Source of the DNA: Eledone cirrhosa
Lineage: Eukaryota
NCBI GenBank assembly: GCA_964016885.1
Contig: OZ024759.1
Coordinates: 4,464,001 to 4,528,000, forward strand
DNA length: 64,000 bases
Direction of reading: 5' to 3'
Shown: piece by piece, positions 4,174 through 49,529 of the stretch
How positions within the stretch are numbered: the stretch's first letter is position 1
Layout of the letters: the number at the start of each line of letters is the position of its first letter
Notes under the pieces: generated by a model
Told to the model about the DNA's origin: nothing
The model's input: only the letters and a program-made list of their open reading frames with translations
The model's database searches: none
Translations under genes and position numbers: made by a program

Positions 4174-6443
4174 ACGGAGGAAATGTGGTAAGGAACCAGG
4201 TGGACCATAATGCACCAAAGTACTCAATACTTAGGGTAGTAGAGTGGGTAATAGGAACGAGTAGGACCCCGACGGCTGAGCTCAAGCCGTTTCGACGGCT
4301 AATTCTGGACTAAATGAACATTTTTATCCTGGTATTTGAATAGCCGAGCTTCTAAAGGGGTAATTCCATATATGGTAAAAGTGATTGTCACGAGGATTGG
4401 TCAAAAGTTTGTTGTTGAGACATAATAATTCTATGATGGCAATTTGTGGAGGGAAGGGGTAGCTGAACCTGCCAGTAGGAGAAAGAGGGAGAGGAGGTGG
4501 AGGAGACCCAGTCATGCGTTGATAGTGCCGACTACAGCTGGGCATGAGGTCAAAGAGGATACTAGGGAGGGGGAGGGGGAGGAAGTCGAAACAATTAGTA
4601 AAACAATTAGTAAAACAATATGGGGTAAATATATAGAAAAATACCGAGAGTGTTAAAAAGCAATTAAATGTAAAAAAAAAAAAAATAAACAATTTCTGGT
4701 TACTACGACCTAAGTCTCTCACTGGCACTGCTAGGCTAAAGAAAGGTTTACTAGGTGGGACGGAATTATAATGAGACCCTTTTAAGAGGTATAAGTAATA
4801 AACCAAGTATATCTTACGGTGACGGGTCAACAAGTGAGGGGTCAAAATACTAAAGAAACTACCACGAAATAATAAATAAAGGTTTCTACCCCAGGCACAA
4901 GGCCAGCAACCACCCAGTGCAAAAAGTAAACTAATACGAAATAATAATTCAGAGTCCTGAAAAAGAATACTAATACTATCTCTAAGGGTGCCGCCACGAT
5001 ACAAAAGTTCTAGTGCAAACTACATAAAAGCTCGTACGAAGTAAAATTTGATACGGAAAATTAGTTCAGAATCCCCCCCCCCCCCCAAAAAAAAAAAATA
5101 CTGATATATGAGAAATTAAAGCAAAGATACCACTAAGAAATATAGAAAGCACGGAAAAGGGGCAGCGGTCGGATAAGGAGGCAAGTATCCGGGGTCTAAC
5201 ACATCTGCTATAAAAAGCGGAGTCGGCCAAATCTATCATAGAATAGGGGTAGGGGGTGGGGGTAGTGAAACTACAAAGGACCGAGGGGCTGCCTCGGGTG
5301 GGCGAGAAAATGAAAAGGACGACAACAAAGAAAGAGGACTGGGGTGGAAGGACTAGGGAGGGATGGGGGGAAGAAGGAAATATAGAGGAAGCGATAAAAA
5401 GATATAAAAGATCTTACGTCTACCGTACCTTTGCAAGCAGGGGTTACCCATTACAAAATCGGCAAGTGGGGTGTTATAGCCCTAGTCTCCCCTCCCCGGG
5501 TCATTATGGGGTTTGAGGGCGAGGTAAGTCCTACGCAATCTATGTTTACATGCAGTAACCAGTCCATCTTTCATTTGTAAAGTTTCCTCCGAGCATAAAT
5601 TGCACGGACGGCGTCCTCCCGTGTAAGAGTTGGCTCTGGACAGTAAGCTCCAAGTGAGATCATAGGTAATGTTGTTATCCTTGAGGTCCCATATGTGGCC
5701 CGAAAGTGTAGTGGCGTGACGCCGGGCCGGGTTTCGGAAGGTATTCCTGTGTTGGTATAGCCGGGTCTTGCGGTTAATCCTATATAAGCTTTGTTGGAGG
5801 TGTCCGTCCTCACGTTGCACTGGTAGATCACATTACGATCTCTGCATCTGTTGTCGAGGGGGAAAATGGATCCATCAGGACAGTTGCACCTCCTGGTCAG
5901 CTCTCCACTGCTATTTAGGTTATTTTTTCCATAGGGGTTGAGTTTTTTGTTGTTAGAGGAGACGATATTTTGTGCAAAGTTTGGTGTGGTGCTGTAAGAG
6001 AGTTTAATGGTATTTTTGTTAATTACGTTGTGGTAGCGGTGTTGTAGTGGGAAGTGTTTTTCAATGAGCCTAAAGAAGATTTTCCCGATAGGAGTTGTCA
6101 CCTCGGCGTTGTGGGGAGGATTGAACTGGTTACTGCATGTAAACACAGATTGCGTAGGACTTACCTCGCCCTAAAACCCCATAATGACCCGTGGGGTAGA
6201 CTAGGGCTATAACACCCCACTTGCCGATTTTGTAATGGGTAACCCCTGCTTGCAAAGGTAGACGTAAGATCTTTTATATCTTTTTATCGCTTCCTCTATA
6301 TTTCCTTCTTCTCCCCATCCCTCCCTAGTCCTTCCACCCCAGTCCTCTTTCTTTGTCGTCGTCCTTTTCATTTTCTCGCCCACCCGAGGCAGCCCCTCGG
6401 TCCTTTGTAGCTTCAGTAGCCCCACCCCCTTCCCCTATTCTAT
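4150..6443 (-). mobile_element. 5'-truncated Penelope-like element: frameshifted C-terminal GIY-YIG ORF, long 3' UTR, inverted terminal segment
   Basis: FNPP...KHFP...KLSYS..PN..CNC..NVIYQC..YIGLT..LSGHIWDLK..CNLC..CKHR; 5238-5563 is inverted at 6126-6443; (TA)n flanks. Confidence 0.85.
4266..4361 (-). ncRNA. Type I hammerhead ribozyme motif, U3-A8 family, core mutated (UUUAGAA), probably inactive
   Basis: acccc-TTTAGAA-long stem II-GAAA-cggct(tgagctc)agccg-TC-ggggt; lies in the Penelope 3' UTR. Confidence 0.6.
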
Positions 6444-6608
6444 ATATATATATATATATGTGTGGAAAAAATGAAACAAAATTTCATTTCTCACTCTTAG
6501 TGCGGCTGTTACTTAAATATAAAGTATGTATACATACATACATATATGTATACAGACGTACAGTAGTATATATACATGCACACATATATATATGTACGTA
6601 TGGCACTC

Positions 6609-9600
6609 AATGACAATGTCACAGATTAAGACAAATTCACCTCCTGCTGCAAGACGAGAATACAAGGACCCCTCTTTATTTCAGACACAGATGACCAACA
6701 AAATCCCGTCTCCCACACCCCTCCCTGCCCCTCCAACCCATCCATCCCACCCTCCCAACTTAGAGTTGGTACCATGAACGTAGGCACATTGAAAGGTCGC
6801 TCAAATGAGGTTGTAGAGATGCTTGAACGTAAAGAAATTGATGTTTGTTGTATTCAAGAGACTAGGTGGAGAGGGGGATCTGCCAGATTCATCGTGGGTA
6901 AAAAACGATGCTATAAACTTTTCTGGGTGGGAAATGACAACGGACAGGGTAGTGTAGGAATTATGTTAGCTGAAAAATGGGTAGATAAGGTAATTGACGT
7001 AAATATAGTGAATGACAGAATAATTAAATTAAGACTAGTTCTAAATAGAATTACTGTGACAATAATATCTGCTTATGCACCCCAATCTGGTCTCCCTGAT
7101 GTTATAAAGGACAGGTTCTATGAGATGCTAATGCACACTACCTCCCAAATAACCGACAGCGACTACTTAATTATTGCTAGCGATCTAAACAGTCGCGTTG
7201 GACAACATAGTGATGGCTATGATGGAATTCATGGAGGCTATGGGGTTGGAAATAGAAATGAGAAGGGTTTCAGAATCCTGGAATTCTGTGATGCAAATAG
7301 CCTAACTATATGTAACACAAACTTCAAAAAACGTGAAAACCACTTGATCACCTATAGATCAGGGGAACACGCCAGCCAGATAGATTATATCCTTACTAGA
7401 AGACGGGACAAAATGTCTGTTGTAAACTCTAAATCCCTCCCCCGTGAAGAATGCCCCTCCCAACATCGCCTAGTAGTTAGTGACCTCATAGCCAGGAATA
7501 GACGTACTCGACGACAGAGGAGGCCTACCTTGAGGAGAAGAATATGGAAGTTGAAGGACCCCATAGCCAGTGACAAATTTAAAAGCTTATTATTTGTTGC
7601 CTTTGACAATAAGGAAGAGCAATTAGAGACGTGCAATAGAGAGGAACAGTGGCAATCCTTGAAAGTGAACCTGCTGAAAGCAACGGATGAAATCTGTGGC
7701 TGGAGCAGACCTATTGGCAGGAGGAGAGTAACTTGGTGGTGGAACAGTGAGGTGGAAGAGACAATCAAGGGCAAAAAGCAGGCTTGGAAAGAATGGCAGG
7801 ATGGGGGGCGTAGAGAGCACTATCAAGTGGCCAGGAGAGAAGCTAGGAGACAAGTGTACCTTGCAAAAAGGGTAGCAGAGGATAGAAAGTTCAAGCATGT
7901 TCTGCAACGTGAGGACCAAAAACGTGAGGTGTTCAGGATTGCTAGACAATGTGTCAAGGAAAACCGTGATATTGTCGGGGAGAAGTGTGTCCGTAATGAT
8001 AATGGTGTACTTGCGCTCACTGATACTGATAAGCCTGGAAGAGGCACTACGAGAGACTATTAAATGAGAAGAATAAATGGGAAAAAGATAGTCTGCCCCA
8101 AATCGATCCAATGGTGCAAGGTAAAGGTAGTATAATAAGTAAGGCAATCAAAGATATGAAGACAGGCAAGGCAGCTGGGCCTTTGGAGGTAGTTGCTGAG
8201 ATGCCTTCAACATCTGGTATGGCGGGACACACTATGGTCACACGTATAGTTAACCAAGTAATACAGAATGGAGTCATACCGAAAGACTGGCGTAGCAGCA
8301 TCATCATTAACTGCTACAAGGGTAAAGGGGATGCTCTAGATAGGGGAAACTATAGAGGCATTAAGTTAGTTGACCAGGTCATGAAGGTCACAGAAAGAGT
8401 AATAGCGCAACTAATCAGAGAGCGAATTGATCTAGATGAAATGCAGTTTGGGTTTGTGTCAGGTAAAAGTACCACAGACGCTCTTTTCCTTGTACAACTA
8501 CAAGAGAAGTACCTAGCTAAAAGTAAACCCCTCTACTTAGCTTTTGTAGACCTGGAGAAAACTTTTGACAGAGTCCCCCGCTCCATTATCTGGTGGGCTC
8601 TTAGAAAACTAGATGTAGATGAATGGCTGGTGAGAGCTATACAAGCTATGTATAATGAAACAGTCAGTAAGGTTAGAATTAACAATGAATATTGTGAAGA
8701 ATTTAGTGTAAAAGTTGGCGTTCATCAAGGCTCTGTCCTTAGCCCCCTCTTATTTATTATTGCCCTTCAGGCTATAACAGAGGAGTTCAAGACCCGCTGC
8801 CCATGAGAACTCCTATACGCAGATGATCTAACGCTCATAGTTGAATCAATGGCTGAACTAGAGAAGAAATTCGAAACATGGAAGCATGGCCTAGAATCAA
8901 AAGGCCTTAAAGTTAACTTGTCTAAGACTAAAGTTCTAGTTTGTAGAAAGGAAAATAGGGCACAGGTGCCCTCAAGGAAATGGCTATGCTCAGTGTGTAG
9001 GAAAGGAGTAGGCAGAAATTCCATTTTATGTCCCAAATGCAAAGTATGGGTACATAAAAGATGTAGTGGGATCACAGGTAAACTATCTCAGAACGTAGAC
9101 TTTATATGTGGCCAATGCTCAGGTGCAATAAGTAGCAAGTGTCCAAAGGATACTAGCTCCTTCCATTGCCCAGATGGTTCTATAGAAATAGTAGACACTT
9201 TCCGTTACCTGGGTGACGAAATCAACGTGGTGGAGGGTGTTCTGAAAGTACAGTAGCCAGAGTCAGAACGGGATGGAAAAAGTTCAGAGAGCTTATACCG
9301 TTGTTGGCCACAAAAGGTTTCTCTCTAAAAATGAAAGGCAGATTGTATGATGCCTGTTTCTCTCTAAAAATGAAAGGCAGATTGGTATGGCCATGTGATG
9401 CGCATTAAAGACGACAGTTGTATAAAAAAAGTGCAGGGCGATCAAAATTGATGGTAGTTACGGAGTAGGTAAACCCAGAAAAACCTGGGATGATCTGATA
9501 AATTCCGACCTTACATACTTACATCTCTCTAAGACAATGTCTCTGGACCGAGATCTTTGGTGCTATGCAGTAATACAGAAGACCCGCCTTGCCTATGTAC

Positions 9601-14900: not shown

Positions 14901-15342
14901 GTAAAAAGTGTTTAAAATTTAAACTTATTAAATAAGTTTCGATGTTATTAAAGAGTATATCGTAAGGAAGGGACATCTTAAGGCTTTAATTATGAACAAA
15001 CTTTTATATTTTCATTCCATTATTGTTTTACTGATTGTGTTTTGCTCTAATCTACTACAAACCCTTCATAGATTGGTCTCTCTGTAACATGGTTGTTTCT
15101 GGAACGTATCATGGCTTAGTGGTTAAAGCATTGGGCTTGCAATCTAAAGGTTGTGAGTTCGATTCTCGGACAGGGTGTTGTGTTGTGTCCTTGAGCAAGA
15201 CACTTTATTTCACGTTACTCCAGTTTACTCAGCTGTAGAAATGAGTTGTGATGTCACTGGTGCCAAGCTATATCAGTCATAACCTTTCTCTTGGACATAT
15301 ATATAGTGTATATATACTGTACACAGTGTATATATATCTATA

Positions 15343-25647: not shown

Positions 25648-25712
25648 TATTTTATCTGATGAAAGAGCACCAAGATTGACTTGGTCGCCCTTGAAATATA
25701 TATAATAAAATA
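25648..25712 (+). ncRNA. Type I hammerhead ribozyme motif
   Basis: tattttat-CTGATGA(25656)-aagagcaccaag/cttggtcgccctt-GAAA-tatata-TA-ataaaata; 8-bp stem I, palindromic minimal stem III. Confidence 0.75.
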
Positions 25713-35544: not shown

Positions 35545-38500
35545 CTAGCTGACGTACCCAGCTTCGCCCGGGTAAACAGATGATAAGAGAAGACAGGTAA
35601 AAGAGAAAATGTCTGTATTGGATGTTTGTCTGGTTACAGTGTGAGGCGAGTCCGTGTTGTCTGTGTGATACAAAAAAACTGTAAAAGAAATCTTCCAGAT
35701 ATACCAGATTCTTCGTTGTCCGGTTTGTGCATAGTATATGAACAATTCTAGGTGCTCCCACCTAGAATAGTGACCTCTAGGAGATGGTTCCTCTTCGGCC
35801 TGACTGGAAAACGTGTATCATTGCATAGACGTGGTTGTTCCACGTTTCTCAAAAGGATGATGGAAGTTCCAATCTGTTATATTATATGTAGATATAGATA
35901 TAGATAATTAATAAAAAAGATGTCCGTCAATGTAAAGAAGGTCCCTATTTACTTGAAATGGTTTATACAAATGCCAAATTAATATGGATATGGATAACAT
36001 GCTTATCTATAAGTGGTCAGCTATAATAATAAACCAACAAATTATATGACACAAACATTTATTCAGTAATTTCCAGGCTCTTAGCCACTGAGTAATAGAC
36101 AGTCAATATTGCCCAGAGTTCAACTCGGGGAGGTGGCCTGGTTTGAACTCAAAATGGCGGATCCTTCTACTTCGAAAATAGAATGGTTTTTCAATATTAC
36201 TCTAGCCCTGGCCGGCCATAGGCACCAAACTTTTTGCCAGACTCAGCATATGATGAGGTTTTATTACCACTGCAATCAGAAGCGATAAATTTGAAGGCAA
36301 TTTCTACCAATACTTGTTGGTTTTTATTGCTCATTATCGACAATAAATGACATTGAACATAAATGATAACTCTGCCAAAGCTCACAATACAGATGAAAGG
36401 AAACCAATGTCCGAATCATATACGTCGCTTATTGATAGCATTAAAGATATGCATACATCAGCTCAAAGCTTCATTATAGACAATATTTAGGTTTGTTCCT
36501 CTGTTAGTGGTATCAATTGCAAATTTTATACCATCAGGATCGCACACTCGAGATGCAGCAACATACAGTTGCCCATGGCTGGATCATTCAAGCAGACACC
36601 GACTCGCTTGAAAGTCTGTCCCTGTGCCTTGTTGACAGTCATGGAGAAGGCCAAATTGACGGGAAACTGTCTCCTTTGCCAAATAAATGGCAGCAGATCT
36701 TCACTTGGTCTCAGCATGATCCTCGGAATGAGAACCGATTCCTCTCTGCCTGGGAGTTTAGCTTCTAAAACTCTTCCGTTAATCAATCTCTCAACAATCA
36801 ATCTGGTACCATTGCAAAGACCCATTTTATGATTGATATTTCTAAGCAATATAATCGGCAAACCCTTTTTCAACCTCAAAATATGTGGGGGAAATCCGGG
36901 TATTTGAAGTGAATTCAGATACTCAGTCGGAACATCCATACTGTTCTGCTGATTAGGCTCCATTGCATCCGCACTGACGGTCAACCATTCCTCTCCAGGA
37001 AACATTCCGGCTACTTGTGAATTTATTTCATCGACCGTTGCATTCGTATGAGTTAGAATAACACGTTCCGATATTCAGGAGAGATTCTGCCAAAAAGCAT
37101 TCAAATTAGGGAACACCCAGTCAATCAAGCCTTGGCGGTCCAGTGGCATGACCAAATGGTCTGGGATTCATACAGTCTGATTATCACCAACGTGTGGCAA
37201 TTCATCGTTTCCCAACTGCATCAACCATCGGCCGTATGTCTCAGCCTCTTCGTTTTGCCCGAACATAGGAAGTCGCATATTATCGTGTAATCGCAAAACT
37301 CTGAAATGGCGCCACAATGGGTACTTTTTCAGACATGCATCGACAATTTGCGCTCTTTGAGCATTCCTAACAATTGGTAGCACCTGTCTGAAATCGCCAC
37401 CAACAACGATAGTCTTACCACTGAATGGCAGGTCACTACCGCAGATATCTCTCAAAGTTCTGTCCAATGCCTCCAGCAAATATCTGTGTGCCATTGGAGC
37501 CTCGTCCCAAATAATCAGAGACGTATTGCGTATAAGGCCCGCGAGTTCACTTTGTCCTGTAATATTACAGACACTCAACTCATCTGGAGCCAATGGAGCC
37601 TTGAAGCATGAGTGGAAGGTCCTTACACCACTCAGCAAAGTGGCAGCGATGCCCCTGGTGGGCACAGGGAGAGCAATCTTCCTCTGAGCTCTGACTGCCG
37701 ATAACATAGTGTTGAAACAGAATGTCTTTCCGGTGCCTCCTGGAACATCTATGAAAGCACAAAGTTGCTCATTAGTGGAAATCGAGTGGAGAGCGCCATC
37801 GACCAATTCTCTGTGAGATTGGGTCAACATTGGCATACGTTCATCCACAATACGTTGCTGTTCCAGTGGATCAAACTGGAATAGTTCCCTCCGATCGAGT
37901 GGCAACCGTCTAAGCTGCAATCTCATGTTCAATGCTAAGACACGTTGCCGCATTTCTTCATCAGGAATTGGTAAATTGAAATCTGTTAAACATTTCAAAT
38001 GAACTTCGAGCAGTTGCTCAATATTGAGCAAAACAATAGCTTTCAGCAAATTTTCATCATAGACCTGAAGATGATGCCTAAAATCATCAGCCATAATTCC
38101 CCAATGGCGTTCAAATAACTCTCTTGGATCGGCAGGTTTGCAGAATCCTAGAATCGTGACAAATAACTGCCTTATTCGAGCTGGCATCTGTGTTGTTCCT
38201 GCAGCTTCCATGGCGTTATTCCATTCAGCGTCATCCTGAAGGAGTCCCAGATGCTGACCCACAGCCTGGTATCTTTTATATTCCACGCCATTGATTGTTT
38301 TCAAATCAGCGAAGCTCTGTTTACCTCTCGAAAAATCACTATGCAACAGAACTCGGAGATAAAACACATCACCAGATGCTGGATGGACATTACAAACCCG
38401 TCCAATAGTCATGAATCTCAACTTTTGTTTTCTATCATTCCATTTCTTTCCCTTCTTATCCCACGTATAGTGCGAAGGGAAATCGCAGTAGAGTTGCTTT

Positions 38501-41383
38501 TGATCCGGGTTCAAAGCATGTTCCCTATTATGCTTGAACCACTCAGTCAATTCCGTCTTAGGAGGTGGTGCGTTAGCAATTCTTTCGATACCTCTTCTAG
38601 TGTCCTTAAAACAGACCATTTGCCTATTCTCTAAGTGAACCGTCAGTTTCTGAACGCTGGGTTTGCGTTCAATGAGATCAAAATCGAACAATCTCCAGCA
38701 AGCTTCGCTAGATCCAATCGAGCGAACATCCTGGAACCTGCCAACTTCATCTCCTTGGTTCACTTCCTCATTCCTGACATTCATCATTGCCCCATCATGA
38801 CCTTTGTAAACATACTTGAATAGATATTTGCAAGCTTTCACTGAGCTACAAATTTCCACATTAATATGACAACGATATTTCATAATCAAATATGGATTGT
38901 ATGGCACAACCCATTGATTTGTAACCTGTCGACCGTTTACATTTTCGACCAAACCGCCATCGGCAGGCGACCGTCTTCTGTATGAGGGATGAGCATCCCC
39001 ATCATTCCAGGAAGTGTTCGTGACAAAAGATTTCGGAAAGTGCTTACTGCATTGGCCATTTTTCATGCAAGGCGCTTTCCGATTTGCCACTCCGCATTGG
39101 TTGTGCACCATTGACTTTGCCACCAAGTTGCATAGTGCCTCATTCTCCGGCAGTTCAGCACACACAATGCTGTCGACATCCTCAGCACATCACAATTTGC
39201 AATCTCTATGTAAAATGAGCAGCAAATGTGCATGTGGCAATCCTCTTTTTTGGAATTCAATTACGTATGTAAAAGCAACTATACCTCCAAAGATTCCCTC
39301 TTTTTCCACATCATCCATTATTTTTTTCAGATATCCTTTGAATACTCTTGCCACAATATCAGGACGGTCCTTTGGCTGTTGTCCTGGCAAAAGTGCATCC
39401 TTAATATCAGTCCATTCAGGATTGCATGTAACTGTTATAAACAAATCTGGCTTTCCAAACTTTCTGACAATAGCCATTGCATCCTGATAGCGAATGTTCA
39501 TATATCTCGGGCCGCCGATGAACGACGATGGCAAAATGATGCGTCGACCAATTTGCTTGTAATTGGCATCATCGGCTGTTATCGCATCCTGTATATTATT
39601 ATACAATTCAGCTCTGATATGTTGCTGATGTGTAGCTATATAATTTACCCTTTGATTTTCGATCTTTGCGTATGCCATACAACAGTATTCCTGGAACAAT
39701 CTGCTGGCTTGAAATAGCGCATTTCTCTGTTGATTCCTCTCGTTCAAATGGAACGCGTAAAAGTCGCAAATCGAATTATTGTGTCTATTGCCACCTCCCT
39801 GTTGATGCTGATTCTCATGATCATCTAAATGAACAGACATGCTCCATCCATTTTCACCTTTTGGGAATAAAAGAACATAATGCAATGGATGGTATGTCCT
39901 ATTTGACTCATTGATAGTGTTGAGACCACCATCTCTGCGATTGAGGGCGATATCTCTCGATCCAGGCTTATCGTCCATCAACACAGCAACTTCACGAAAT
40001 CCTTCAGGGGCATTATATCGCCGTTCGTGTTGATTCCTTGGCACTGCGTCAGCCTTAATCATCAATGTTTGTTGCTGAACATTTTGCAGTTCAGCCACCA
40101 ACATGAAATCCATAACATAAGGATTACACTGTCTAAGCCATGATTGCAAATCATGGATCAAATCACTTAACCTTTGCCGTTCAAGTTCAGTTATATTTCC
40201 CGGCAACTTCATCCAACCGATCCTGATATCCTCCTCCGATTCACTATAATCTGGATCGTTAACGTAAATTTGAGCGAATCAAGGCCTCTCTCCTGGGGTA
40301 ACTTCTAAATTACCGATACAATGATACAAACGGCATTGAATGACGACATTCGGTTGCCATGCTCCACTCTCAAACATCTAACTCTCTGCGATGCTAAAGC
40401 TAATAAATTGTTAATTTGCCGCGAATATTTGCGCAGTAATCTACCTCGGTCTCATTGATCACCCCACATACTTAGTATTTTAAACTCCGGTGACTCCCCA
40501 TCATCCGGCATTCGCAAGGGTTCTAGTTGAACTGCTCCTTTGTGACAGCACATTGTGGTCCACGTCTTTTCGTGCCACCAAAGCAATGCTCCACAATGTG
40601 GAGACTCTGCTCGTCCACCAATCTGACAGTGACACGGTTGCCATGATCCATTTTTAATATCATTCGTTCGCCTTCTAGCCTCTTTACTGGAATGAGGAGC
40701 ACTTTGCGACACATTCCCTGAACTTCTGTATTGCGCTGGCGCTGTTCAGCCAGCTCCTCTTCATCCATCGGAGCACGCCATTGCTGCTGAATTCTGGCCA
40801 CCTGCTGATGATGCTCAGCCAGTTCGTTTTTCAACCATCGCAGCACTCCGTCGCCGCTGTAGTTCACTGTTTGATAAAGTCGAATTGCTTTTCTTATCAG
40901 TATTCATTTGGAGCAATTGTAAAAAAAAATGACACAATAATAAATATAAAAGATGTCCGTCAATGTAAAGAAATGTCCCTATTTACTCCCTTCACAACTC
41001 TGTGTATGACAGACAGGCACACAGACAGATAAACTGCGCGGCGATTGTGGAACGTCACACGCATACACGCATGGAAACGCGCACACGCACGCAAACTTAC
41101 ACACGCACACACTCACACATGTTGATAGTTTTTACTTTCTGTGGAACACTGCACGCACGCACACACACATAAACATACGCGCACATACATACACACGCAT
41201 ACATGTTAATAGTTATTGAACACAGTGTTCACACTCTCCCCTCTCACTCCCTCATTGGCATTATGCATATTAATTTCAGTTTGGCGTCGTTGGGGTGGGC
41301 GGAGTCCTTTGAAACCTATGAACCAATGATAATCGAGAATTGTGACACACGGAATACTGACGTTCTTCAAATTAATAAATAGA
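35545..41383 (-). mobile_element. Full-length Helitron (Rep plus PIF1 helicase), ORF broken by frameshifts and stops
   Basis: 5' A|TCTATTTATTAAT at 41383; 3' hairpin acccgggcgaagctgggt plus CTAG|T at 35545; PDLFITVTCNP, EFQKRGLPHAH, KYLFKYVYKG, PGGTGKT, WDEAPM, GDFRQVLP, NKAQGQT. Confidence 0.95.
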
Positions 41384-42164: not shown

Positions 42165-45140
42165 CCTTGACCGACCAGTCTGTCGGGCGTCCATTCGACG
42201 CCGCTGGTCACAGCACGCCGTCCATTCCTCTCCGTATTGTGCTTTCCTCATCCATGTAGTCCCAATCATATTCCTAAAATTATCTGCCACCTTCATGGAG
42301 GCCTTCCGAGTGGTCGCTTCCACTCGCACGGGTACCACTCCGCAACTGCGCAGGTCCAGTGATTATCGGTGAACCGGGCGACGTGTCCAGCCCATCTGAA
42401 CTTGCTGCGTATATATTGCGCGATGACGTCCCTCACACCGGACTTCTGTCTAATGACTTCGCTCCTGATGTGCTCTCTCAACAAGATTCCTAGCATTGAT
42501 CTCTCCATGGCTCTTTGAGCCGTTACCAGCCTCTGCTCTTCTCTCTTCGTTGTAGCCCAAGATTCACTGCCATATAACATTGCAGGTAAAACTGTGCTAT
42601 TGAAGGGGTTGGCGTGGGTGGTCTTGTCCAACCTCCCCTTGAGCACATCCCTTATGCCGCTGAACGCCTTCCATCCCTTACTCTCTGCGAGATCAGCCTC
42701 TCAATGTATTGGCGCATGTTCACTTCTTGTCCTAGGTAGACGTATTCCTCCACCTCCTCTATTTCATCACCACCAACCACCATTCGACCTGTTGGTACGT
42801 TGTCGGACCGCATGAAGTTCGTTTTCATGCTGTTCATCTTGAGGCCTACTGCAGAGCTTTTGATGTCGAGCTCCGTCAGCATGGTCTGAAGCCGATCCGT
42901 GGTTTCAGCGATGAGTACGATGTCATCAGCGAAACGGAGGTGGGTAAGTATCTCCCCATTGATGGTGACACCGCCTTGCCAGTCAATGCCTCTGATGATC
43001 TGCTCGAGACACGCGGTGAAAACTTTTGGAGAGATCGTATCTCCTTGCTTCACTCCCTTCTCGACCGGCACTCGTACGGGTGATGACAGCAGAGCTGTGT
43101 CGGTGGTGCATCCGGAATTCGCCTCCTTGAGCAGTTGAACGTATTCTGCCTCGACTCCTTGCCTCTGCAGCGAGTTCAGCACTGCGTTGATTTCGACGCT
43201 GTCGAAGGCCTTCTTGTAGTCTACGAACGCGACGCAAAGAGGCATCTTGTACTCTTTTGCTTGCTCAAGCAGTTGTGTCAGAGTAAATATGTGGTCCATC
43301 GTGCTGTAGTTCTTCCGGAAGCCGGCTTGCTCTTTCGGTTGCGGTTCGTCCAGATGATGTGATAACCTGTTCAGGATTATCTTCGCGAACAGCTTGTACA
43401 CGTGAGACAGCAGGAATATGGGTCAGTAGTTCTTCAGATCTTGTCTATCGCCCTTCTTTTATAGCAGGATGGTATTCGACTCTTTCCACTGCGAGGGTAT
43501 TCTTCCCTCGTCCAGATCGTGTGTGAATCGCTCGGCGAGGATTTTCCAGAGCTGTTCTCCGCCTGACTTCAACACCTCCGATGTTATTCCGTCTTTCCCT
43601 GGCGCCTTTCCGCTTTTCATTACACCGACGGCTCTTTCCACCTCACCGACAAGGATGGGTGGCACATTTTCTTCCTGTTGGAGTGACGGCAACGGCTGCA
43701 CATTCCCGGCAGACTTGAAGAGCTTGGTGTAGAAGTCTTCGTAAATCTTTTCCATCTCATTCTTGTCGCTGACCGGTACTCCAGCTGTGTTCTTCAGGGT
43801 CGTCACCTCCGATCTGTACATTGCCATGTCCGTCTCGCATTTCTTGAGGCTCTTCTTTTCCTCTGCGGCCTTCAGGAGCTTCCCCATCCGGTATGCCTCG
43901 AAGTCTCTCTTCAGTTGCCGTATCACTCTGCTGAGAAGGGAATATTCGAGGTGATTTTCAGGTGTCCTCTTCATAATCTTCCTCTTCTCAAGCAACTTCA
44001 TAGTTTCCTCCCAGACTCTTCCCTTCCGCTCCTTCGGGCACACTCCCTTAGCCTTCCTCAAGCACTCCTTCAGTTTCCTTATCAGTGAGTCGTAGTCAGC
44101 GTCTATGCCGTCTCCTTTACACCACTTTTCCTGCATGATGGCTTCCTGCTGCTGCGCCTCGTTGAAGACCCAGACGCGTTCTCCCTTCGACGCCAAATGC
44201 AGCGCCTTCTTCTCCCTCGTCCGATCGATGACGACCTTCGGCCTCACCAGACGATGATCACTGCCAGTGTTAAATGGCGTTATGACGGAGACGTCCTGCA
44301 GTATACGTCGCTTGTCGACCAGGATGTAGTCGATCTCGTTTCCGTGCTCAGAATTTAGCGATACCCAGGTCCATCTTTTCTCCTCCTTCTTCCTGAATAG
44401 GCTGTTTCCGATGTAGAGCCGTCTCATCTCCGCCATGGTGACCAGACACTCTCCTCTCTCATTTCGATCTCCTAGGCCGAATTTTCTTACATACTCTTCC
44501 CCTTGCCGTCCCTGTCCGACCTTTGCGTTGAAGTCCCCCATCACGACGGTGTAAGTGGACTTCACAGCTAGCACTTTGTCTAGCTGGCGATAGAATTCTT
44601 CCACTTCCTCGTCGTCGCTGGCACTTGTGGGAGCGTAGGTCTGGATGATCTTGAGGGTGGCCTTCCCTGAGAGGTTTATGTTCAGTACACCAATCCGTGA
44701 CGATATGAACTGGCAAGAAGTGACCTTCGAAGCCCATTCCTTGCTTACGATAAACCCTATACCAATCTGGCATCCTCTGCTTTCCCGAGTCTCACGGCGC
44801 ATCCATCTTGCCATCGGGAATTCGCCTCCTTCTTCTGGCGGGTCTTGCACAGCCCTAACACGTCCCACCTGATCTTCTTCTTCTCCTCCATTAGGTGGTT
44901 CAGTCCTTGCCCCCTGCCAAAGACCTGCAGTTGTATGTGCATATGGCAAGGTTAGTCCTGTTCCATGGCGGCCTTCGGGAACCTGCGATTCTTAGCAGCC
45001 TCTCGTCGCTCGGGTCGCACTCCGCCATCATGGAGCAGCCCGATTGACTCGCAGGGTACTGAGGCCCTTTTCTTCGTGCTGTTTTAACCATAAGATGACG
45101 CCATCCCATTGGCTGGGCGGGCAGGCCGGTACCTCTTCAG
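42165..45140 (-). mobile_element. RTE LINE of a second, GC-richer family (RTE-1-like), near full length with frameshifts
   Basis: CTYNCRSL, TYAPTS, MGDFNAK, EIDYIL, GSDHRLV; GVKQGDTISP, RFADDI; RWAGHVAR..RPLGRPP; sits in (TA)n. Confidence 0.95.
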
Positions 45141-45227
45141 TTTAGCTAGCTTTTGAACTCTAGAAGATGATGAATCATCTCTAGGACCCAATTCGGGTCA
45201 AACAAATAAAAAAAAATATATATATAC

Positions 45228-45264
<37 letters not shown>

Positions 45265-45266
45265 CA

Positions 45267-45404
45267 TATACTTGGGGAGGTTCATATTGTTGTAATAATA
45301 TTGCCAGAAATAATAACAGAACACACTCACTGTTTGGTTGGTTTTCGCTTCTGTATCTTTTATATCTCCATAGTTAATTTATTTGGCAATCAAAGAACTT
45401 TGTT

Positions 45405-45469
<65 letters not shown>

Positions 45470-45607
45470 CTGTATATTTAACCATTGGTCAATCAATGCC
45501 ACATAAATTAACTATGGAGATATAAAAGATACAGAAGCGAAAACCAACCAAACAGTGTTATTATTTCTGGCAATATTATTACAACAATATGAACCTCCCC
45601 AAGTATA
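45267..45607. repeat. Fold-back element, ~110-bp inverted arms around a (TA)n-containing spacer
   Basis: 45267-45381 is the reverse complement of 45503-45607 with a ~10-bp indel; (TA)n flanks. Confidence 0.85.
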
Positions 45608-45629
45608 ACAATATATATATATATATATA

Positions 45630-45737
<108 letters not shown>

Positions 45738-46528
45738 TATATATACACACATATATATATACACACACATATATATATACACACACACATATATATACAC
45801 ACACATATATATACACACACATATATATATACACACATATATATATATACATATATATATATACACATCATCATCATCATTCTACGTCCACTTTTCCCTG
45901 CTTGCAAGGGTGGGATGGGAACTGATCCTGGCTTGATTTCTACAGCTGGATGCCCTTCCTAACACCAACCTCATTTACAGTGAGTGCTGGGTGCTTTTTT
46001 TGCCGTGGCACCTCCACGACCACTTTACAGTGGAATGATAGGGACCCCAGTCCCTATCATCTCATTTCTACAGCTGAGTAAACTGGAGCAATGTGAAATA
46101 AAGTGTCTTGCTCAAGGAAACAACGCATCACGTGGTCTGAGAATTGAACTCACAACCTTTCGATTGCAAGGCCAATGCTCTAACTACTAAGCCATGTGCC
46201 TCCATTCATATATATATACATATATATACACACACATATATATCTAAGTCTAAAGTCTGTCTTAAGCCAGCAGGCTCATTTGGCCGGTGCTTATACCGGT
46301 TTCATGGCGTGAAGTGAGTGGGAGTACAAGACTACCCCCTGGACAGGATGCCAGTCCATCGCAGGGTTAAACCTCCAGCTATTGCTGGTACACATTTTCA
46401 GCTGAGTAAACTGGAGCAACGTGAAATAAAGTGTCTTTCTCAAGGAAACAACACATCACCCGGTCCAAGAATGGAACTCACACCTTTCGATTGAAAGCCT
46501 AATGCTCTAACCACTAAGCCATGTGCCT

Positions 46529-46612
<84 letters not shown>

Positions 46613-46831
46613 AGTATGTATGTATGTATACATACATACATATATGTATACAGACGTATAGTAGTATGTATATATATACATACATGCACACATATATATA
46701 TGTACGTATCAGTTTACCAAACATTTATTATAATGCTCGGTTTGTTTGTTTGTAAACAAACAAACAGCCCGAATTACGCCGTACAGTGTTTAGGCAACCA
46801 CGTCACCTTTTTGTTCAACACTGACACAGGA

Positions 46832-46874
46832 ATGATGTACTAGTTTCAAGCTTATTAGCTATCGTCAGCATTGT
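46832..46874 (-). ncRNA. Minimal type I hammerhead ribozyme motif
   Basis: acaatg-CTGACGA-tagct aata agctt-GAAA-ctag-TA-catcat; palindromic stem III ACTAGT. Confidence 0.75.
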
Positions 46875-47388
46875 ATACCTTCCTGCCAGATGGTTGAACG
46901 TCTGAAAGTATATACTTTCCTTATGCATATTAACGGCTGAGCAGCCTAATTTGCATATCGAGTGAGATCAGTCGGCTGGGCACACCGAAAACGATAAATG
47001 GAATAGAATGAAACGAAATTTCATTTCTCACTCTTAGTAAGGCACTTACTTAAATGTATGTATACGTACATACATATATGTATACAGACGTACAGTAGTA
47101 TGTATATATATATATACATACATGCACACATATATATATGCACGTATCGGTTTACCGAACATTTATTATAATGTTCGGTTTATTTGTTTGTAAACAAACA
47201 AACAGCCCGAATTACACCGTACAGTGTTTAGGCAACCACGTCACCTTCGTTTCATTCTATTCCATTTATCGTTTTCGGTGTGCCCGGCCGACTGAACTCA
47301 CTCAATATGCAAATTAGGCTGCTCAGCCATTAATATGCATAAGGAAAGTATATACTTTCAGATGTTCAACCATCTAGCAGGAAGGTAT

Positions 47389-47431
47389 ACGGTGCTGACG
47401 ATAGCTAATAAGCTTGAAATGAGTACATTGT
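47389..47431 (+). ncRNA. Minimal type I hammerhead ribozyme motif, inverted copy
   Basis: acggtg-CTGACGA(47395)-tagct aata agctt-GAAA-tgag-TA-cattgt; stem I pairs using G-U. Confidence 0.7.
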
Positions 47432-47642
47432 TCCTGTGACAGTGTTGAACAAAAACGTGACGTGGTTGCCTAAACATTGTACGGCGTAATTCGGGCTGTT
47501 TACAAACAAACAAACCGGACATTATAATAAATGTTCAGTAAACCGATACGTGCATATATATATGTGTGCATGTATGTATATATATACATACTACTGTACG
47601 TCTGTATACATATATGTATGTACGTATACATACATACATACT

Positions 47643-47703
<61 letters not shown>

Positions 47704-47868
47704 GTATATACATATATATATATATACACACACACACACAATTATATAGAACAATAAAACATGGCACTAGATGTTCAACCCAAGACCTTATGATTGAGAA
47801 CAGCACACCTGTAACCTCTAAGCTATATATCTTCACACAGACTTTCTGATAAAGACAGAAGTACCCAC

Positions 47869-48006
47869 CTGACTGACAGTTGTCTCCCCTGAAACCAGCT
47901 GCACATCCAACACTAGAACACACCCCAGATTTAATGTTGCAATGATCGTTGTCAGCACAGTAGCACAAATACTGACAGTTCAAGCCAAAATAACCCTTTT
48001 TACATT
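47869..48006 (-). CDS. Host gene exon, EGF-like repeat (ECKKGYFGLNCQYLCYCADNDHCNIKSGVCSSVGCAAGFRGDNCQS)
   Basis: Poly-T tract plus cag acceptor, donor gtgggt; 138 bp, phase 1-1. Confidence 0.92.
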
Positions 48007-48129
48007 CTGAAAAAAAAAAAAAAAGAAAATAGAATTATATACACAACATATATATAAAATTATACACAATAACACATATATACAATTATACACAGCTATA
48101 ACATACATATACACAATTATACATAACTA

Positions 48130-48490
48130 TAATGCCAATGTGCGTGAATGACCAAGCATAGACGAGTTGAGAAAGAAACTGGGTATAAGAGGGATAAGTT
48201 GTGGTGTGTAGGAGAGAAGGCTGAGCTGAGATGGTATGGACATGTGATGCGCATGGAGGATGACCGCTGGGTAAAGAAGTGCCAAGAAATCCCAGTAGAA
48301 GGAAGACGCAGTAGAGGTAGACCATGAAAAACATGGGCGGAGGTGGTGAGAGAAGACCTCAAATTGCTGAAACTCACGGAGGAGATGACAAGGGACCGTG
48401 ACGAATGAAGAGATGCCATGCTTAATAAGACCTGTCCCACCCTTGCAAGCAGGGAAAAGCGGACGTAAAATGATGATGATGATGATAATA
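48130..48490 (+). mobile_element. RTE LINE 3' fragment (others at ~1300-1550, 2510-2615, 20765-21075, 26960-27340, 41395-41445, 45867-46035)
   Basis: LRWYGHVMR-like translation and/or the cccatgctagc..ggacgt.aaa(cga)tgatgat tail. Confidence 0.75.
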
Positions 48491-48965
48491 ATAAAATTAT
48501 TGTGTACAGTGCTCAGGTGCACTACAACTCATCAATGGTGAATGTATAGTACATTAGTGAACAGACAGTGAACAGTGTATGAGTCATGAGATACACACAG
48601 ACACATGCATGCGTGTGTATGGAGGGGGAATATCAGGTGTAGTGTTGGCGCAAAAAAAAAATAAAAGGAAATGCTTACAGCACCTAGGTTTCTCAAGTGG
48701 TTTCCCATCTAAGTACTAACTAGGCTCGAGTCAAGATATATGTGTGTGTGTGTATGTATGTATGGAGGGGGAATATCAGGTGCAGGGTTGGCGAATTTCA
48801 GGCAACATGGAGGTTTTAAAGGATGCAGTGTCCCGGCAGCTAACAACTGATGCAGGTAGTTTGTTCCATGCTTCAGTGAATTTCAGGAAGCATGGAGGTT
48901 TTAAAGGATGCAGTGTCCTGGCAGCACACAACTGATGCGGGTAGTTTGTTCCATACTTCAGCAAA
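48490..48965 (-). mobile_element. CR1/L2-type LINE 3' end (second copy ~61220-61412)
   Basis: WNKLPASVVSCRDTASFK C-terminal motif; short-repeat tail reading (taa)n on the plus strand; shared 3' UTR. Confidence 0.7.
48670..48730 (-). pseudogene. 5S rRNA 3'-half fragment (pseudogene or SINE3-like piece)
   Basis: Minus strand reads gagcctagttagtacttagatgggaaaccacttgagaaacctaggtgctgtaagcattt, which resembles the metazoan 5S box C region and 3' end, followed by a T-rich tail. Confidence 0.8.
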
Positions 48966-49529
48966 TTTTTATATATATTGATTGACCAACATTTAAAAAA
49001 TATAAATATAAATATAGTTTCTCAGAGTTTTTTCATCACATATCTGTGACATCATCAGTGATATTTCTATGCTTGTCATATTCCTGTGATGTTTTCTTAT
49101 TCTATTTTATTTATTTGCAGTAGTTCCAACGTAAAAGACTTTCATAATAGTTGATCACTATAAATAACAGTTAGGAAAACCAGATAAAGTACATGTGGAG
49201 ATAGAAAGAAGTAGACGGAGGGTCCTGTAAGGAACAGGTGCAAGTTTGCTTCCTTGCAAATACTTCTGTCTACATCTACCTTTCTCCTGAGATACTTTAC
49301 TACCCACATTAACCTGTCACCTGTGGTCCATTACTGTCTACCAGGAATAATAATTGTTTCTACTTTAGGCACAAGGTCAGAAATTATCCAAGTGTATTAC
49401 TGGTACTTTATTTTATCGACCCCGTAAGGATGAAAGGCAAAGTTAACTTCGGTGGGATTTGAACTCAGATTGTAAAGGGACATAACTATGCTGGAAAGCA
49501 CGGCATCCGACTCTCTACCGATACTGCCA

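Follow-up and report, generated by a model that had tools for sequence, protein, structure and literature searches.

A high-copy, hammerhead-bearing non-coding repeat family with Penelope-type insertion features in the genome of Eledone cirrhosa

The window analysed here is a 64,000-nt stretch of the Eledone cirrhosa genome (assembly GCA_964016885.1, contig OZ024759.1, positions 4,464,001 to 4,528,000 of the forward strand). Between window positions 46610 and 47648 it holds a 1,040-bp composite of a short non-coding unit, which is inserted in (TA)n and carries two hammerhead ribozyme (HHR) motifs on opposite strands. A second fragment of the same family lies near the left end of the window, beside the remains of a Penelope-like element (PLE). 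The features of both places are as follows.

46533..46609, no strand: (TA)n target run to the left of the insertion
46610..47247, minus: long arm in ribozyme sense, made of a 5'-truncated partial monomer (47247-47057) followed by a full 447-bp monomer (47056-46610), which ends at the non-tail 3' site
46832..46874, minus: predicted minimal type I hammerhead with the core CUGACGA..GAAA, a 4-bp stem II and an ACUAGU palindrome
46949..46956, minus: octamer-like motif ATGCAAAT with a putative promoter role; largely retained in the sister family
46994..47056, minus: "tail" segment, monomer positions 1-63, between the two 3' end sites of the family
47246..47248, no strand: inversion junction, where the two 5'-truncated arms meet
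47246..47648, plus: short arm in ribozyme sense, a 5'-truncated monomer of about positions 40-447, which ends at the non-tail 3' site
47389..47431, plus: second predicted hammerhead, with stem I paired through two G-U wobbles and a broken palindrome (GAAATGAGTA)
47649..47725, no strand: (TA)n target run to the right of the insertion
5230..6440, no strand: 5'-truncated inverted fragment of a Hydra-type PLE, extending further left and not part of the unit
5482-6170, minus: GIY-YIG remnant of that Hydra-type fragment
6463..6603, minus: separate 140-bp 3'-terminal fragment of the unit family, with its tail end toward the (TA)n at 6441-6459 and no HHR

The layout given in the initial annotation holds at the main locus. 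The repeated segments A and A' (46620-46809 and 47054-47247) are 93.8% identical, the inverted arms (46595-47017 and 47246-47655) are 92.4% identical, and (TA)n runs flank the composite on both sides. The unit, described as about 445 bp long and lacking a credible open reading frame (ORF), is a monomer of 447 bp with 36% GC, in which the only frames are microsatellite-derived strings of Y, I, T and H. The A-B-A' arrangement is likewise present, but in the sense of the ribozyme the order is the reverse of the one proposed. The HHR motifs start at 46868 (minus) and 47395 (plus), so that two 5'-truncated arms diverge from 47247 with both 3' ends pointing outward. The tail segment is internal here and missing from both ends of the insertion, a minority pattern found in 1 of 40 inverted insertions of the family. 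It contains a hairpin that is retained by a sister family described below.

A hammerhead had been assigned to each B segment. Core motifs do occur at both of the positions above, while the consensus quoted for them is a chimera that matches neither copy. In the minus-strand copy the core is intact, stem I has two mismatches (ACAATG/CATCAT), and cleavage is predicted from the hammerhead consensus to follow GUA at 46838. An Rfam scan of the window returned no hammerhead at the gathering threshold and one tRNA-like match at 15112. The isolated HHR regions of the window fold no better than their shuffles (z -0.87 to +0.22), and the minimum-energy dimer in a co-fold of two HHRs lacks the ACUAGU intermolecular helix, which lends no support to action as a dimer. 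The hammerhead call is based on the core motif and on covariation among copies and between families. In 135 family motifs, a sample picked for an intact core, each of the stem I pairs 1-6 is formed in 120-132, and pair 3 is T-G in 67, A-T in 43, G-T in 13 and C-G in 4. At the family level each unit carries a predicted type I hammerhead, and both window copies are damaged. As there is one HHR per strand, the window locus cannot release a monomer by double cleavage; it lacks the two consecutive same-strand HHR units that define an active locus in Li et al. (bioRxiv 10.64898/2026.07.22.740005), an arrangement present at other loci such as L039, L055 and L113.

Several further hammerhead-like sequences were recorded in the genome. 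A variant of the unit family at L349 (G000:C1:44245300-44249299) has a CTGATGA core, an altered stem II closing and a GTT cleavage triplet, and its ribozyme is intermediate toward that of the sister family. The 3' regions of three Neptune-type PLE families, N1, N2 and N3 (L200, L238, L352), hold a variant hammerhead-like core, TTGA[AT]AA, followed by an ACCGGT palindrome, and a U-U closing of stem II is common to the unit and to Neptune N1 and N4. Another hammerhead-bearing tandem repeat, with a period of 312 bp and not homologous to the unit, was seen at L193:4230-4870. Two more hammerhead-like motifs, at window positions 25656 and 26835, belong to a different repeat family that recurs in many of the loci examined.

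The composite as a whole is found in 30 near-identical copies with the same junction (the best 30 of 40 scored DNA matches, window included), located on four contigs. All 30 have the right flank in common at at least 94%, so they are segmental duplicates of one insertion, and their reading as independent insertions was rejected for this reason. Near-identical segmental duplicates of the region at window 44500-49100 and its flanks are spaced about 100-200 kb apart on contig C20, with contigs C16, C19, C20 and C27 represented. The window contains six cysteine-rich frames on the minus strand (63989, 60856, 57790, 56050, 55625 and 48004), and the element lies directly downstream of one of these exons. 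We label the frames EGF-like, a domain that Pfam did not call for the exon; a weak DSL match occurs at 2676-2843. The duplicated cysteine-rich exon region looks like an amplified multi-exon gene array. If the stretch 46610-47648 is intronic in that gene, its inverted arms of ~410 bp would give long double-stranded pre-mRNA, a putative substrate for A-to-I editing. Remnants of a Helitron helicase and Pif1 and of a LINE-type reverse transcriptase (RT) lie on the minus strand at 36529-40278 and 42655-43422, and an endonuclease-bearing LINE frame lies at 6630-8063. The window copy of the unit is an ordinary decayed insertion of a high-copy family.

The size of this family and its tandem arrangement are evident from 10,046 exact genome matches to the 31-nt HHR core, with 0 for the reversed control, and from arrays of 2-5 HHR units. 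Its monomers are 420-450 bp long, non-coding and repeated head to tail. End statistics were taken from 88 loci, consisting of 8 divergent matches and the first listed places on contig C1, with overlapping and duplicate loci dropped. These resolve into 89 independent clusters, 47 of them direct, 40 inverted with 3' ends outward and 2 of other form. Two sites account for 107 of the 127 3' ends, with 56 at monomer positions 56-64 and 51 at 437-448. The two fixed sites are about 62 nt apart and lie about 225 and 290 nt from the predicted cleavage site. The 51 5' ends of the 88 loci are scattered, and (TA)n adjoins 83 of 127 3' ends as against 11 of 51 5' ends. Genome-wide there are 1,766 exact junctions of tail and (TA)n (control 0). 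Among the 40 inverted insertions, the tail is found at exactly one end in 32, at neither in 1 and at both in 0, with a non-standard end in the remaining 7, and the inversion points vary among independent insertions. No pile-up of 5' ends at the cleavage site was seen in the 88-locus sample, a test that is biased because the sample was selected for an intact HHR.

These data contain the features by which PLE-type insertions are recognised, namely variable 5' truncation with fixed 3' ends, an inverted 5'-truncated copy at the 5' end (40/89), a one-ended tail (32/40) and (TA)n targeting. Fixed 3' ends alongside 5' ends that scatter, tails at one end only and a preferred target together call for target-primed reverse transcription. 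Within an insertion, 28 of 76 unit pairs have no diagnostic difference compared with 2.9% of pairs between insertions, which reflects a shared subfamily haplotype, and the median divergence of units within one insertion is 3.6-4.5%. Divergence within and between insertions does not separate circle from multimer templates. A few arrays mix subfamilies (L154, L116). The subfamily switch in L154 lies near the 3' end site, not the cleavage site, and suggests template jumping or insertion into an existing copy. The unit is deeply covered by contigs of one sequencing run and found in traces in those of three others, all four runs being of unknown kind; this coverage has no bearing on expression or host range.

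A sister family with monomers of 465-470 bp is collinear with the unit (z 29) and has 7,819 exact HHR matches. Pairing persists in its stems I and II although their sequences differ, and the core and ACTAGT are retained. Whole-monomer folds of both families far surpass their shuffles, with z of -7.5 and -9.5, and the predicted monomer fold is one structure closed by stem I. Both sides have changed between the families in 24 of 85 consensus pairs, stems I and II included, a count that leans in favour of the structure, since both were taken from one alignment of 7 sequences from these two related families. According to these fold predictions, the HHR and a similar overall fold are kept in the sister family through compensatory changes.

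The sister family is the younger of the two. In 96 full units of 12 insertions, opposite-arm pairs show a median of 0 differences, with 107 of 159 identical, while 0 of 3,771 between-insertion pairs are closer than 3. All 13 inverted sister insertions in which both ends can be seen carry the tail at exactly one of them, and the sister tail measures 68-76 nt. Arrays reach 31 units plus an inverted arm. Higher-order repeats in the long arrays point to growth after insertion, so that their uniformity is no proof of rolling-circle copying and was rejected as such once these repeats appeared. Examples of the family include L111 (G000:C1:155823500-155831499) and the arrays at G000:C1:5738327-5752443 and C1:30831845-30840563. 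With its near-identical copies, the sister family is the better material for experiments.

The relation of the unit to coding PLEs was approached from both sides. The recurrence of the B-to-A junction in the window, from which dispersal had been concluded, was recovered as a match at 6463-6601 (81%, 154 nt, E 7e-39). The neighbouring Penelope GIY-YIG fragment had also been read as a link to the unit, and this does not stand, as the unit fragment and the PLE meet tail to tail across one (TA)n and share no sequence. The Hydra-type family of the window was accordingly discarded as a parent, having no sequence in common with the unit. No PLE ORF is attached to any of the 47 direct insertions, the upstream flank examined being 2.7 kb in the median and 0.6 kb at minimum. 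In one of the 47 a same-strand PLE ORF lies within 2.5 kb upstream; it belongs to a Hydra copy that has an end of its own and is separated from the unit by two (TA)n runs. Thirty loci picked by the 3' junction show no common upstream sequence, and at the loci sampled the sequence before a monomer is always another monomer's end, an inverted arm or flanking DNA unrelated to the unit.

On the side of the PLEs, comparison of 11 terminal regions and one other HHR repeat with the unit on both strands gave a best z of 3.2, no higher than the maximum reached by shuffles. In 114 and 30 PLE loci, a profile search, which alone covered the distal 3' end of Neptune N2, returned neighbouring unit copies only. 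The PLE sample consisted of the best-scoring candidates (best 63 of 92,415, best 150 of 10,596 and best 65 of 36,808). A real unit copy lies near nine PLE loci (8/114 and 1/30). Four of the nine were read through by eye (L223, L174, L240, L111) and have the unit and the PLE as separate insertions across (TA)n; L095, L101, L193, L239 and L359 were left out of this reading. No sampled PLE family carries the unit at a recurring position, and four Hydra-type families, five Neptune-type families and one other were rejected as parents, none being homologous to the unit. Resemblances of the tail end of the unit to the Neptune N2 end and of its non-tail end to the Hydra C end span 7-14 nt of AT-rich sequence and were discounted.

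Candidates for a helper are present in the same genome, where PLE candidates number in the tens of thousands. Among the best-scoring candidates, many intact Hydra-type frames of 714, 719 and 784 codons and Neptune-type frames of 775 and 784 codons were found (L169-L198 and L350-L379 for both types together), with both RT and GIY-YIG in L229; the intact frames are partly in tandem. Clades were assigned from motifs in Craig et al. (PMC8557442), not from a tree. Neptune N2, N3 and N4 each end at two sites that run into (TA)n; counted by eye, their tails measure 40, 63 and about 40 nt. Every locus that shows both orientations (9 of 9 for N2, 10 of 10 for N3) has the tail at one end and lacks it at the other, each pair being assumed to be one insertion. 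The insertions of the unit bear the same integration signature as these coding Neptune-type PLEs. In N3 the tail is 63 nt compared with 62 nt in the unit, and nearest-copy divergence is 1.2% compared with 1.8-2.2%, so that the ages overlap. N3 is put forward tentatively as the lead helper candidate, which is not an identification.

The unit is probably a non-autonomous element, a non-LTR retrozyme, that is likely reverse-transcribed in trans by the RT/GIY-YIG protein of a PLE, most likely one of Neptune type. Copy number, end statistics, the lack of an ORF in the sample and the existence of the sister family all support the earlier proposal of a non-autonomous, dispersed, HHR-bearing tandem unit with Penelope-type integration. 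Judged by its sequence, it is a short, low-GC, non-coding tandem unit with a predicted type I HHR, as non-LTR retrozymes are defined. In the mechanism proposed, tandem unit copies would be transcribed and the endonuclease of the helper PLE would nick both (TA)n strands. Reverse transcription would then start internally on either side of the tail hairpin, at one site for each strand, which would produce the outward-pointing arms. The HHRs may cleave as dimers through the ACUAGU palindrome, after which ligation would close the monomer into a circle, and continued copying around it would give head-to-tail units. Dimeric cleavage, monomer ligation and circle copying are the least certain steps, and jointly they are only slightly favoured.

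An alternative that differs from this explanation in the template only is a non-autonomous PLE derivative for which tandem transcripts, linear and uncleaved, serve as template, with the hammerhead as a transcript processor or passenger and no circle. We give it a minority chance, though a real one. HHR mutants of an anole PLE had no effect on insertion in vitro (PMC11167929), and eight of nine Xenopus retrozyme dimers did not cleave (bioRxiv 10.64898/2026.07.22.740005). The distance of both 3' ends from the cleavage site, the expansion of long arrays after insertion and the existence of mixed-subfamily arrays also agree with a linear template. This has to be set against the HHR core, palindrome and pairing, which are kept between families that differ widely elsewhere and so imply selection on the ribozyme. 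Folding of the whole monomer into one structure closed by stem I, as modelled, speaks against this alternative as well, as does the private sequence shared by opposite arms of young sister insertions, in which identical pairs predominate.

The remaining alternatives are much weaker. That the unit is an ordinary pLTR of an unsampled coding PLE, with its copies as 5'-truncated debris, is unlikely. Ends, tail and target are the same as in coding PLEs, whose diversity in this genome is large and sampled in part, but no direct insertion is joined to an ORF, the sequence upstream of a monomer is never a PLE body at the sampled loci, the unit has no recurring position in the sampled PLE families, and the sister family is of the same closed size. 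Recombinational spread of a satellite or minisatellite, with the hammerhead as a chance or vestigial motif, would fit the microsatellite-rich 3' third of the unit, the higher-order repeats and the lack of an Rfam match; the end pattern, one-ended tails, target preference and compensatory changes in the HHR make it highly improbable. Least credible of all is a foldback or MITE-like DNA transposon with terminal inverted repeats of ~410 bp, a reading suggested by the long inverted arms and the 30 near-identical copies with one junction. It is contradicted by the shared flank of all 30, which marks them as segmental duplicates, by inversion points that differ between insertions and by the 47 of 89 clusters without inversion.

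Returning to the retrozyme explanation, a broader form of it is possible, although we would not back it at even chances. The unit may belong to an old, parent-free lineage of structured circular RNA replicons of ~450 nt that recruit a Neptune-type RT by shape, not by sequence homology. This lineage would include at least two families, together with about 18,000 exact HHR copies; the younger family would probably be mobile still, and the insertions would record both internal RT start sites. If this is true, it would be the first retrozyme whose junctions reveal how it integrates and whose integration could be reconstituted with an intact helper encoded in its own genome of origin.

Animal non-LTR retrozymes are as a kind already described (PMC7229834; bioRxiv 10.64898/2026.07.22.740005), for example a family of 350-390 bp in Mytilus galloprovincialis (Cervera and de la Pena 2020, PMC7229834). 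Like the unit, these are short tandem repeats, AT-rich and non-coding, with a single type I HHR per repeat and thousands of copies alongside PLEs. A helix I of 6 bp, a helix II of 4 bp and a palindromic loop 3 are of the metazoan type (PMC4209133). The unit differs from them in its longer monomer (420-448 bp, and 465-470 bp in the sister). The accessible portion of PMC7229834 contains no account of integration junctions (tail, inversion, (TA)n), and no mention of cephalopods was found in it. For the giant squid, 235 Hammerhead_1 Rfam matches are reported with no element described in the part of the source available (PMC6962438). In agreement with the initial annotation, no description of a cephalopod retrozyme was found in the open literature, with Repbase, Dfam and subscription journals outside the search.

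Mobilisation of animal retrozymes by PLEs has been proposed since 2020, with co-occurrence and terminal-repeat homology as the prior support. Vertebrate non-LTR retrozymes were proposed to be non-autonomous PLE derivatives by Li, Clavereau and Pollet (2026, bioRxiv 10.64898/2026.07.22.740005), where the link consists of pLTR homology (24 of 57 Xenopus families) and co-occurrence and where, in the accessible text, no mollusc is named among the 35 species. The unit shares with these elements the proposed use of PLE machinery and the occurrence as monomers, dimers and multimers. It is unlike them in that no homologous pLTR was found among the sampled PLEs and in that it is tied to PLEs by its integration signature.

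According to Craig et al. 2021 (PMC8557442), PLEs are marked by partial tandems, inverted 5' copies and a tail at one end only, and (TA)n targeting is listed there for Hydra and Naiad PLEs. The unit resembles the Neptune and Hydra clades of that source in 5' truncation, partial tandems, the inverted 5' copy, the one-ended tail, (TA)n targeting and an HHR upstream of the 3' end, whereas it has no RT or GIY-YIG ORF and its tail is 56-62 nt compared with 30-40 nt in PLEs. Non-autonomous Chlamys elements such as MRC1 (PMC8557442) are likewise non-coding PLE dependants with multicopy head-to-tail insertions. Their 3' ends are in general similar to those of the autonomous partner, and HHRs are absent from most Chlamys elements in that account, while the unit has an HHR and no detected homology to a partner. 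Frangieh et al. (PMC11167929) place the PLE tail between two internal RT start sites, with both target strands cut and extended.

In the present case the non-coding unit itself bears the PLE-specific signature of a one-ended tail, 5' inversion and (TA)n target, and intact Neptune and Hydra ORFs with the same (TA)n target occur in the same genome. Two unannotated-looking repeat families of thousands of copies each are added to a cephalopod genome, and both trans-mobilisation and the choice between circular and linear templates become directly testable with the existing in vitro PLE assay.
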